Shown here piece by piece: positions 1 through 34,178 of a stretch of 34,178 nt of DNA (position 1 is its first letter; every line of letters begins with the position of its first letter). The notes under the pieces were generated by a model that was given only the letters and a program-made list of their open reading frames with translations, was not told where the DNA came from and searched no databases. The position numbers and the translations under genes are program-made. This stretch comes from a virus (lineage: Duplodnaviria; Heunggongvirae; Uroviricota; Caudoviricetes), in IMG/VR virus record IMGVR_UViG_2534681772_000018; one strand, 5' to 3'.

Positions 1-981
1 TTATAACGTCACTCCGCCTTTTAGTGGATTCAGAGCGACGGCGTTCTGCAGGTAGTCAGGCGCAAGGTGCGCATAGGTCATTGTCTGCTGAATGCTCGCA
101 TGCCCCAGAATCTGTTGCAGTGCAATTATGTTGCCCCCATTCATCATGAAATGGCTTGCGAATGTATGCCGCAGAATGTGGGTTGCCTGATTGGGAGGTA
201 TATCAGGTTTCACTCTGCGTAAAATCCCGCAAAACTTCTCATAATCTACCTTGAACAATTTGGCGCTGGCCTCCTCTTTAACTTTTTTCTCCAGTTCCTC
301 AGAAATCGGCACTGTTCGCTTTTTACCGTTTTTGGTTTTCAGGAAGGTAACCCTGCAACTTGTAATCTGTGCTGGTTTTAGTGTGGCAACTTCCGTCCAC
401 CTTCCTCCAGTGCTCAGACATAAAAGCGCGACAAGTAAGTCATCACCAGTCAAAACATTTAGCAGTTTTTCGATTTCTGCTTTTTCCAGGAACGTCATTT
501 CAGGGTTAGCCTCCGTCAGTGGCGGCAGTCCGTGAATTGGGTGTTGCCCGGAAAATTCATCCAATTGAATTAATTTTGTGAACATGCCGGATAATCGGTA
601 CATGTCGCGGTTTATCGTTGCAGCACTGATGCCATCACGTAGTCGCATGGAGCGATAATCCATCAAAGCCCTTTTGTTCATCCGACTCACTGGTATATCA
701 CCTATGCCGCTGATGGTTTTGAGCAGATGATTAAACTCTTTTGTCCCATGCTCGTGGTTTTGCCCGTGGTATTTCCACCAGATGTCGAGCAATTCTGTCA
801 AAGTTCGGCGGTCTGCTCGCTGGCCTCCCCATTCTTTCTGACTGGCATTGGCGATTGTGTATCGCTCAAATGCTAGTGCTTCAGCTTTTCTTTCAAATTT
901 CCTGCGGATGCGTTTTCCGTTGCGACCGCGAGGTCTAATGTCCACTTCATAGCGACCATCATCGAGCTTCTTAATTGCCAT
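1..981 (-). CDS. int: Phage integrase, tyrosine recombinase (P2 Int-like)
   Basis: ORF 1..1011 on minus strand with TAA stop at 1-3. C-terminal catalytic region HILRHTFASHFMMNGG...GHASIQQTMTYAHL fits the tyrosine recombinase R/H/R/Y pattern. Internal ATG at 981 (MAIKKLDDGRYEV) is preceded by GGAGGG at 7-nt spacing, so 981 is preferred over 1011. First gene of the prophage, next to the C repressor as in P2. Confidence 0.9.
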   Translation of the reverse strand: MAIKKLDDGRYEVDIRPRGRNGKRIRRKFERKAEALAFERYTIANASQKEWGGQRADRRTLTELLDIWWKYHGQNHEHGTKEFNHLLKTISGIGDIPVSRMNKRALMDYRSMRLRDGISAATINRDMYRLSGMFTKLIQLDEFSGQHPIHGLPPLTEANPEMTFLEKAEIEKLLNVLTGDDLLVALLCLSTGGRWTEVATLKPAQITSCRVTFLKTKNGKKRTVPISEELEKKVKEEASAKLFKVDYEKFCGILRRVKPDIPPNQATHILRHTFASHFMMNGGNIIALQQILGHASIQQTMTYAHLAPDYLQNAVALNPLKGGVTL

Positions 982-5976: not shown

Positions 5977-6921
5977 ATGCCAACAGTAGTTTCACTTTTT
6001 TCTGGATGCGGTGGTTCCGATGCGGGGGTTCTGAGAGCTGGCTTTGATGTGCTTATGGCCAACGATATCTTGCCGTATGCGCGCGATGTTTATATTGCCA
6101 ATCATCCAGAAACTGATTACATTTTAGGCAATATTGCTGATGTAACTACTTTTCCTAAATCTGATTTGCTAGTAGGTTGTTATCCATGTCAGGGATTCAG
6201 CCAGGGTGGTGCGCGTAAGGCCGATCGAAAAATTAATACTCTTTATTTAGAGTTTGCTAGAGCTTTAAACAATATAAAGCCTAAAGCTTTTATAGTAGAA
6301 AACGTGTCTGGTATGGTTAGAAAAAACTTCGAGCATTTGTTATCTGACCAGATCAGGGTTTTTACTGAAGCAGGTTATGCTGTTTCAGCAAAAGTTTTGA
6401 ATGCGGCTGAATATGGAGTAGCGCAGGAAAGAAAAAGAATATTTATCGTAGGAATCCGTAATGATTTCAAAGTTAAGTACGAGTTCCCTCAGCCAACTCA
6501 TGGGCCGGCGACTGGCGTCAACTATGTTACTATTAAAGATGCTATAGGGCATTTACCTGAATGGCCAGAAGGTGAATTTTATGATATGGGGTTCCATTGG
6601 TATTATATGTCTCGCAATCGTCGCCAAGATTGGGATCAAATTTCAAAGACAATAGTTGCTAATGCAAGGCATATGCCGTTGCATCCTATCAGTCCTTCGA
6701 TGGAGAAAGTAAGAACTGATGAATGGAGGTTTGTTGAGGATCGGAGAGCTCGCAGATTCAGTTTTCGAGAGGCAGCACTATTACAAGGGTTTGAGGATCT
6801 AGTGTTTCCCGAAACAAATGCTGCAAGTCTTGGCATGAAATACACGGTGGTTGGTAATGCAGTGCCTCCGCCGCTTTTTGAAGCTGTAACGAAGGCATTG
6901 CCAATAGAATTATGGGATTGA
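5977..6921 (+). CDS. DNA (cytosine-5)-methyltransferase, Dcm/M.HhaI-like
   Basis: 314-aa ORF with the canonical C5-MTase motifs: motif I FSGCGG, motif IV PCQGFS (catalytic Cys), motif VI ENV, motif VIII QERKR, motif X GNAV. AGGAGGGG precedes the ATG; TATAAT at 5946-5951 upstream. Noticeably AT-rich relative to the phage backbone. Confidence 0.9.
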   Translation: MPTVVSLFSGCGGSDAGVLRAGFDVLMANDILPYARDVYIANHPETDYILGNIADVTTFPKSDLLVGCYPCQGFSQGGARKADRKINTLYLEFARALNNIKPKAFIVENVSGMVRKNFEHLLSDQIRVFTEAGYAVSAKVLNAAEYGVAQERKRIFIVGIRNDFKVKYEFPQPTHGPATGVNYVTIKDAIGHLPEWPEGEFYDMGFHWYYMSRNRRQDWDQISKTIVANARHMPLHPISPSMEKVRTDEWRFVEDRRARRFSFREAALLQGFEDLVFPETNAASLGMKYTVVGNAVPPPLFEAVTKALPIELWD

Positions 6922-32821: not shown

Positions 32822-33040
32822 ATGTTTCATTGTCCTTTATGCCAGCATGCCGCACATGCGCGTACAAGCCGCTATATCACTGACACGACAAAAGAGCGTT
32901 ATCACCAGTGTCAGAACGTGAATTGCAGCGCCACGTTCATCACTTATGAGTCGGTGCAGCGATACATCGTGAAGCCGGGAGAAGTCCACGCCGTAAGGCC
33001 GCACCCGTTGCCGTCAGGACAGCAAATTATGTGGATGTGA
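32822..33040 (+). CDS. ogr: Late-gene transcription activator Ogr (zinc finger)
   Basis: 72-aa ORF MFHCPLCQHAAHARTSRYITDTTKERYHQCQNVNCSATF... with a CxxC...CxxxxC zinc finger; GAGGTG upstream of ATG 32822. Track ORF starts further upstream at 32759. Confidence 0.85.
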   Translation: MFHCPLCQHAAHARTSRYITDTTKERYHQCQNVNCSATFITYESVQRYIVKPGEVHAVRPHPLPSGQQIMWM

Positions 33041-33050
33041 TCACAAAAAT

Positions 33051-33078
33051 AGCCCCTCAGTTGAGGGGCTTTATTTAT
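33051..33078 (+). terminator. Rho-independent terminator after ogr
   Basis: AGCCCCTC-AGTT-GAGGGGCT hairpin followed by TTATTTAT, 11 nt after the ogr stop. Confidence 0.6.
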
Positions 33079-33083
33079 GGTCG

Positions 33084-33200
33084 ATGTGGACGCTATGTGG
33101 ACAGAGTTTGATATAAATCCATTTATATCATCAGGTTAGGTGCTTTTTTGTGACACCATCCCTGTCTTCCCCCACATGATGTGGGGTTTTTTTTATCCTC
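33084..33200. other. Probable attR region (phage arm with direct repeats, then core and host junction)
   Basis: Lies between the last phage gene (ogr) and the host gene fieF. Two direct repeats ATGTGGAC at 33084-33091 and 33095-33102, 11 bp apart, resemble integrase arm-type binding sites. A second terminator hairpin CCCCAC-ATGAT-GTGGGG plus T8 at 33170-33194 may be host-derived. Exact core not determined. Confidence 0.4.
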
Positions 33201-33275
33201 AATTTGCCTGCTGCTTAATGCATTGCAGATGATTTGCTTCCGTTATACTAGCGTCAGTTGATAGCGGGAGTATTT

Positions 33276-34178
33276 ATGAATCAATCTTATGGACGGCTGG
33301 TCAGTCGGGCGGCGATTGCTGCGACGGCGATGGCTTCGTTGCTATTGCTGATTAAAATTTTTGCATGGTGGTATACCGGGTCGGTGAGTATTCTCGCCGC
33401 GCTGGTGGATTCGCTGGTGGATATCGGCGCGTCGTTGACGAATTTATTGGTGGTGCGATATTCCCTGCAACCTGCCGACGATAATCACTCGTTTGGTCAC
33501 GGTAAAGCTGAGTCCCTCGCGGCGCTGGCGCAAAGTATGTTTATCTCCGGTTCGGCACTATTCCTGTTTTTGACGGGTATTCAACATCTGATATCTCCAA
33601 CACCGATGACAGATCCAGGCGTCGGGGTTATCGTGACAATTGTGGCGCTAATTTGTACGATTATCCTTGTCTCGTTTCAGCGTTGGGTGGTGCGGCGGAC
33701 GCAAAGCCAGGCGGTGCGGGCTGATATGCTACATTACCAGTCTGATGTTATGATGAACGGCGCAATTCTGCTGGCGCTGGGGTTGTCCTGGTACGGCTGG
33801 CATCGCGCCGATGCTCTGTTTGCATTGGGAATCGGCATCTATATTTTATATAGCGCGTTACGCATGGGATATGAGGCGGTACAGTCATTACTGGATCGCG
33901 CATTGCCTGATGAGGAACGGCAAGAAATTATTGATATCGTGACTTCCTGGCCGGGTGTTAGCGGCGCTCACGATCTTCGCACGCGGCAGTCAGGGCCGAC
34001 CCGCTTTATTCAGATTCATTTGGAAATGGAAGACTCTCTGCCTTTGGTTCAGGCACATATGGTGGCGGATCAGGTAGAGCAGGCTATTTTACGGCGTTTT
34101 CCGGGATCGGATGTAATTATCCATCAGGACCCCTGTTCCGTCGTACCCAGGGAGGGTAAACGGTCTATGCTTTCATAA
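33276..34178 (+). CDS. fieF: Cation-diffusion facilitator family ferrous-iron/zinc efflux transporter FieF (YiiP), host gene
   Basis: 300-aa [52 protein letters not shown]... recognised as E. coli FieF/YiiP; multiple transmembrane helices; GC content and codon usage differ from the adjacent phage DNA. Confidence 0.95.

Follow-up and report, generated by a model that had tools for sequence, protein, structure and literature searches.

A probable Wphi-type attR junction of a P2-like prophage at the cpxP-fieF site

INTRODUCTION

Comparisons with empty and occupied chromosomal sites and with phage genomes make it highly probable that the short segment between the genes ogr and fieF described here (positions 33041-33275) is the attR junction (P-O-B') left between cpxP and fieF by a P2-like (Peduovirus) prophage with the Wphi type of integration. 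The segment lies within a stretch of viral and host DNA of 34,178 nucleotides, hereafter the window, whose two ends are stop codons: that of an integrase gene on the minus strand at position 1 and that of fieF at position 34178. This type of junction is already known, and is common, published and well understood. For example, the E. coli W genome paper gives the site of the Wphi1 prophage as "cpxP-fieF" (PMC3032704). An earlier note, made from the letters of the window alone, had recognized several elements of the segment, all of them present at the positions it gives, and most of its proposals can be placed on firmer ground by comparison with characterized relatives.

RESULTS

The phage-host boundary

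The segment is framed by the following genes and host sequence:

1-981, minus strand: gene for the integrase, a heterobivalent tyrosine recombinase of the Wphi type (326 aa when read from MAIKKL).
32822-33040, plus strand: ogr, the late-gene activator and the final phage gene ahead of the junction (open reading frame and translation; annotated ogrK or ogr in matching records).
33198-33275, plus strand: fieF upstream region (B' side), host DNA without change, identical to positions 1548-1625 of the empty site L002.
33276-34178, plus strand: fieF, the host gene for a CDF cation-efflux transporter (annotated fieF in all matching genomes; ATG at 33276).

The phage-host boundary had been placed between ogr and fieF in the earlier note, and genome comparisons agree. 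When 960 bp across the junction was used as a query against complete E. coli genomes (n = 5426), all 5426 matched, and 691 of them cover the ogr side. In the remaining genomes the alignment starts at query base 412, which is window position 33152, meaning that prophage-free genomes align only from this point rightward. A probe of 91 nt that is specific for attR detected the junction in 790 of the same 5426 genomes. Taken as a range (691 to 790), these counts indicate that the cpxP-fieF site is occupied in ~13-15% of complete E. coli genomes.

The nature of the junction was examined through a four-way comparison of the empty cpxP-fieF site (L002, from strain 14EC007), the attL of strain TW10590, the Wphi attP and the window. 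This alignment against an uninfected fieF upstream region, which the earlier note had proposed as a check, defined a block common to all four sequences. To the left of the common block, the window aligns as phage DNA that is identical to the Wphi attP save for two bases, and to the right of the block it aligns as host DNA that is identical to the empty site. Because phage DNA thus lies on one side and host DNA on the other, the segment is best read as attR (P-O-B').

The features by which the Wphi integration type is recognized, namely the cpxP and fieF flanks together with a Wphi-like integrase and core, are all present. Over the first 12 kb of the window, the identity to strain TW10590 is 100%; in this strain cpxP ends 174 bp past the integrase stop codon, which puts cpxP on the integrase side of the prophage and fieF on the ogr side. 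The window integrase is 97% identical to Int of coliphage Wphi. Its identity to P2 Int is 52% overall, and 29 of the first 30 residues are the same, such that the protein has the conserved N-terminal arm-binding domain of the P2 family and is encoded adjacent to att.

Two features elsewhere in the window were recorded in passing. An open reading frame of 314 aa at 5977-6921, in the early region 3' of the replication gene, resembles a cytosine-5 DNA methyltransferase (N-terminus FSGCGG) and is probably phage cargo. Within fieF, at 33400-33425, the sequence CGCTGGTGGAT occurs twice as an exact direct repeat of 11 nt with 12-bp spacing; it encodes LVDSLVD and is an ordinary coding repeat.

Candidate integrase and IHF sites on the P arm

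Between ogr and the unchanged host DNA, the segment carries these elements in order:

33051-33078, plus strand: predicted intrinsic terminator serving both ogr and the late F operon (hairpin at 33051-33070 with a T-rich tail; terminator scan and fold).
33084-33091, plus strand: putative P-arm integrase arm-type site, copy 1, ATGTGGAC (aligns with the first P2 P-arm repeat, ATGTGGTC; identical in the Wphi attP).
33095-33102, plus strand: putative P-arm integrase arm-type site, copy 2, ATGTGGAC (aligns with the second P2 P-arm repeat, GTGTGGAC; fits tgTGGaCa).
33113-33146, plus strand: stretch homologous to the IHF-binding region of P2 (alignment with the protein_bind feature for IHF at P2 24324-24357).
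33152-33197, plus strand: sequence shared by the att sites ('core', broadly speaking), 46 bp here, with host homology starting at 33152 (attR, attL, attP and attB alignment).
33170-33194, plus strand: copy of the predicted cpxP/CpxQ intrinsic terminator within the common block (terminator scan and fold).

A terminator for ogr had been noted at the left end of the segment, and a predicted hairpin with a T-rich tail was found there. Its stem of 8 pairs, AGCCCCTC-AGTT-GAGGGGCT, is followed by TTTATTTAT, and the fold has a predicted energy of -16.7 kcal/mol (z = -4.0). The homologous element of P2 is annotated as 'rho-independent terminator for ogr transcript and F operon' (NC_001895). Both this hairpin (33051-33070) and a second one at 33170-33186 are GC-rich, are followed by a T run on the same strand and lie 3' of a gene, and hence termination is predicted at each. 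In a similar cpxP-fieF prophage of SW071620 (L005 1141-2487), an IS4 element is located between ogr and the P arm.

The two copies of ATGTGGAC are situated 10-13 bp beyond the terminator homologous to that of P2, and are 11 bp apart from start to start. The P arm of the window reads ATGTGGAC-gct-ATGTGGACa at 33084-33103, where copy 2 and the A that follows it form TGTGGACA. The P2 Int P-arm site reads ATGTGGTC-aat-GTGTGGAC (NC_001895), and the window repeats align with it exactly. In P2-like phages, the arm consensus is tgTGGaCa and the conserved N-terminal domain of Int reads the arm sites (PMC3448106). The suggestion that the two 8-bp repeats are integrase arm-type sites is therefore well supported by their alignment with the annotated P2 P arm and their fit to this consensus, and on this homology the N-terminal domain of the window integrase would be expected to bind them.

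The repeats are phage DNA, because prophage-free E. coli genomes share the sequence only from 33152 rightward. The earlier note had allowed that they might instead be conserved host sequence found in prophage-free strains, but they are missing from the empty site. The more general pattern TGTRGWC-N4-TGTRGAC is present exactly twice in each attP examined, namely those of P2, Wphi and L001 (NZ_JBQJRQ010000002.1), a P2-like phage genome deposited as a 32,330-bp circular 'plasmid unnamed3' that is apparently a circular or excised form. It is present once in each normal attL or attR examined, and a search of the empty cpxP-fieF site found none. A scan of IMG/VR with Ogr recovered 80 loci with an identical Ogr, among which there are three cores and little P-arm sequence diversity.

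A candidate IHF site is located between the P-arm repeats and the core. The sequence TATCATCAGGTTA at 33126-33138 agrees with the IHF consensus WATCAANNNNTTR at 12 of 13 positions and is the sole match with at most one mismatch in 33041-33275. By homology to P2, IHF would be predicted to bind here.

Several other sequence features in and around the P arm deserve brief mention. A perfect AT-rich inverted repeat of 10 bp, TGATATAAAT / ATTTATATCA, is found at 33109-33130, within the IHF-site homologue and preceding TATCATCAGGTTA. The equivalent stretch in P2 and L001 is also palindromic, with two positions that differ and are changed on both sides; with only three variants (P2, Wphi and L001), the comparison is too small to serve as a measure of covariation. 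The last ogr codons, at 33028-33036, include TATGTGGAT, a third sequence close to the arm word, 56 bp 5' of the first repeat and outside the annotated P2 footprint. The P arm as a whole also lies between the halves of an imperfect inverted repeat of 17 nt (33033-33049, at the end of ogr, and 33145-33161, at the left edge of the core; 82% complementary). This was set aside as a functional element since it is not conserved in P2, and it is probably a product of chance. No supported small open reading frame of 20-30 aa was found in 33041-33275, where all candidates overlap the terminators and att elements.

The common block and the second terminator

The common block is 47 bp in length, GACACCATCCCTGTCTTCCCCCACATGATGTGGGGGTTTTTTTTATC, and is identical in the Wphi attP, the empty attB and attL; 47 bp is also the longest common substring of the Wphi attP and the empty site. 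The window copy is 46 bp, with a G run of four rather than five. Strand exchange would occur somewhere inside this block (33152-33197). Core polymorphisms in IMG/VR prophages, which include the G4/G5 run, an A>C change in the loop and left-edge variants, do not resolve the crossover placement without paired attL/attR data.

The second terminator consists of CCCCACA-TGA-TGTGGGG at 33170-33186 and T8 at 33187-33194, and the four-G run leaves its stem with 7 pairs. In the empty site, the same terminator sequence starts 23 nt 3' of the cpxP stop codon, which identifies the element as the cpxP terminator. It had been proposed that this terminator belongs to an upstream host gene displaced by integration. 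The host origin of the sequence is correct, but the terminator has been duplicated rather than displaced, and cpxP keeps a copy. Specifically, one copy is in attL, beside cpxP, another is in attR, beside fieF, and the Wphi attP has its own. Approximately 76 phage records, including Wphi, L-413C and fiAA91-ss, match the stretch from ogr to the core as far as ~33197. The absence of the canonical P2 core, which had led to the suggestion that a different site is used, is explained by the Wphi-type integrase (97%) and the cpxP-fieF site.

Two other ways of reading these elements were weighed. If the ATGTGGAC pair had arisen by chance, or were bound by a different protein (Cox or the C repressor, for example), then unremarkable repeat statistics would be expected, and this is what is seen. 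Exact 8-mer repeats at 9-12 bp spacing occur at 6 loci in the 34-kb window versus 2.6 in composition-matched shuffles, and TGTGGAC occurs 4 times versus 4.1 expected, showing no enrichment. These counts are not above chance and were discarded as an argument for arm sites. Thus, the case for the pair rests on its position and on homology to a characterized site. The position is that of the annotated P2 Int P arm, and the pair is retained in P2, in Wphi and in a third type of att site even as its 3-bp spacer varies. Furthermore, the P' arm carries a second pair of the arm word, the word of L001 is changed on both arms together, and the P2 Cox site is annotated across the core, on the other side. 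An origin by chance or a role for another factor is therefore extremely unlikely. Just as hard to credit is the proposal that the second terminator is purely host DNA, with the crossover to its left and no copy in the phage. As this proposal predicts, the element matches the cpxP terminator region of the host exactly and only host DNA follows on its right, yet Wphi, ~70 other phage records and the circular L001 carry 45-47 bp of the sequence between their arms, and attL holds a copy too. Whether the bases of the attR copy derive from phage or host depends on the crossover point.

Overlap of the core with the small RNA CpxQ

The common block coincides with part of a small RNA. In E. coli, CpxQ is 58 nt long and includes C5, C6 and U7 (bioRxiv 10.1101/271551), and it covers nearly the entire cpxP 3' UTR (PMC9438474). 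Its start fits TTTTCCTTGCC, which places the RNA at L002 1487-1544 in the empty site. The common block (L002 1501-1547) comprises CpxQ nucleotides 15-58 followed by ATC, or in other words the final 44 nt of the 3' UTR of cpxP, terminator included, plus three bases. Phages of the Wphi type thus appear to target the 3' end of an sRNA gene. The full CpxQ sequence is present in the empty site and at attL. The attR copy is a fragment (nucleotides 15-58) that lacks the 5' 14 nt and cpxP, and so does not constitute a CpxQ gene.

The canonical core of P2 is also the 3' end, with the terminator, of a small RNA, in this case CyaR (Rfam RF00112, 100.7 bits; L020 1924-2009, an IMG/VR prophage). No article linking CpxQ to prophage integration was found in the literature searched. 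CpxQ was described in 2016, after the 2011 cataloguing of the Wphi site. The 2011 papers list that site as intergenic (PMC3448106, PMC3032704). The CpxQ overlap is a small point of interpretation and not a new kind of system.

Rfam contains no family named CpxQ, and no match of that name was obtained at the empty site or attR. The best match is to RF02628 (Hrs1) on the opposite strand, which at 44.5 bits for the empty site and 28.8 bits for attR is below the gathering threshold of 56.4 bits and serves as a lead only. The matches span L002 1472-1544 and window 33129-33194, both on the minus strand. The consensus of Hrs1, an Hfq-regulated sRNA of Erwinia, has an A run and then a hairpin, much as a CpxQ homologue would look in reverse complement, and the family may be oriented antisense.

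The attR fragment keeps a single-stranded stretch and the Hfq-binding terminator of CpxQ, and it constitutes a second copy in every lysogen, or in ~13-15% of sequenced E. coli. If read-through from ogr or the late operon produced an RNA from it, that RNA might mimic CpxQ in part or compete for Hfq. This is very unlikely, but if true it would tie prophage late transcription to the envelope-stress regulon.

The state of attL and attR in TW10590

The earlier note had recommended a search for the same direct repeats near attL. Such a repeat is there, but as a single copy in TW10590 where two are usual. The attL of this strain (L003 1371-1400, ~17-30 bp left of window position 1) has a single TGTGGACA in the int-proximal P' arm. 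Wphi and three other lysogens at cpxP-fieF all have two copies, and relative to them one 11-bp unit, TGTGGACACTA, has been deleted. This deletion was found in only 2 of 773 genomes. Therefore, instead of the two direct repeats by int that are typical of the P' arm, TW10590 has the architecture of the family in locally damaged form.

The attR site is also unusual. Its G and T runs (33183-33194) read G4T8 in the window; RefSeq TW10590 and one IMG/VR prophage (L081) have G4T9, versus G5T8 in every attB, attL and attP examined. The exact window sequence is shared by only 14 of the 790 attR junctions. The G4 run makes the hairpin one pair shorter, and attL and attR are consequently not identical. 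Part of this difference may be a homopolymer sequencing artefact.

These departures from consensus in the G run and P' arm make the present-day excision competence of the TW10590 sites uncertain. They also lend some weight to the idea that the junction is a fossil, in which sites that once worked have left the prophage locked in and the elements of 33041-33275 no longer take part in recombination. Both lesions, the G run that is shorter in attR than in attL, attB and attP and the loss of a P'-arm repeat, are rare. Nevertheless, int is full length and closely related to that of Wphi, and the prophage has the normal P2 length with intact late genes. Moreover, the difference in the G/T runs falls at a homopolymer junction and is not the same in two assemblies of one strain, which might make it partly artefactual, and a single arm site may suffice for excision. 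On balance, a locked-in prophage is rather unlikely, and the reading of the segment as an attR of the ordinary Wphi type is preferred.

DISCUSSION

Relationship to characterized attachment sites

The closest relative of the window junction is that of Wphi (Peduovirus Wphi, AY135739), with which it shares the integrase type, the 47-bp common sequence and the chromosomal site cpxP-fieF. The P arms are identical except for 2 bases to the right of the repeats (AGAGTT versus AGTGGT). The differences lie in the G run of the common sequence (4 in the window versus 5) and at the TW10590 attL, which has one TGTGGACA versus the two in the P' arm of the Wphi attP and where the sequence from the core to the P'-arm repeat has diverged.

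In P2 (NC_001895), the annotated order of elements is ogr terminator, Int P arm, IHF, core, Cox and Int P' arm. The window aligns with this arrangement element by element as far as the core, including the homologous IHF region, and has in common with P2 the arm word TGTGGAC/TGTGGTC, its 11-bp period and the nearly invariant N-terminal domain of Int. Unlike the window, P2 has a shorter core of its own, the 27-bp AAAAAATAAGCCCGTGTAAGGGAGATT at the end of CyaR, an integrase that is only about half identical overall and a distance from P to P' repeats of 174 bp versus 196 bp.

The circular genome L001 has the cpxP/CpxQ core (45 bp) and the 196-bp P-to-P' spacing of Wphi. Its integrase is 68% identical, with an N-terminus that differs at several positions, including R16W, and the word TGTAGAC is found on both arms. 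Because the word differs on both arms and the spacing is the same, the architecture appears to be kept while the arm word changes on the two arms together. Other arrangements exist within the group. A third att type with the P2 P arm occurs in pro483, vB_YpM_117, L031, L062 and L069. Its core contains ATCAAAAAATGTCACCAATAACTGAC, for which Rfam gave no match. PSP3 and EtG represent the other published arm type, which has repeats containing GCCAC.

More distant parallels are also instructive. In lambda-type attachment sites, the N-terminal domain of Int binds arm-type sites, IHF bends the DNA between arm and core, and attR has the order P-O-B'. P2-type sites follow this general logic of arm sites, IHF bend and core, but show no sequence relation to those of lambda. 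Each P2-type arm has two direct repeats in one orientation, and the directionality factor is Cox rather than Xis. Integration at the 3' end of an RNA gene, with the phage supplying a replacement 3' end, is known for phage 186 at tRNA-Ile and for P2-like phages at rybB. As with insertion into tRNA, tmRNA and sRNA genes of this kind, the common block described here covers the 3' part of the RNA and the terminator, and the gene would be rebuilt at attL. Unlike those targets, CpxQ is not an independent gene.

Predicted operation of the junction and implications

By analogy with these systems, Int molecules would bridge the arm sites and core in both integration and excision, with IHF bending the ~50 bp between them and Cox setting directionality from the other arm, at attL. 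Since an identical copy of the common sequence is present in the phage, integration would regenerate an intact cpxP-CpxQ at attL. The second terminator copy at attR would then insulate fieF from phage read-through.

Both terminators and the repeats can be accounted for by known biology. The two rare lesions of the att sites in TW10590 yield a testable prediction regarding excision competence. Overall, the main value of these findings is correct annotation, in that the right boundary of the prophage is fixed at 33152-33197 and its integration module is typed as Wphi.
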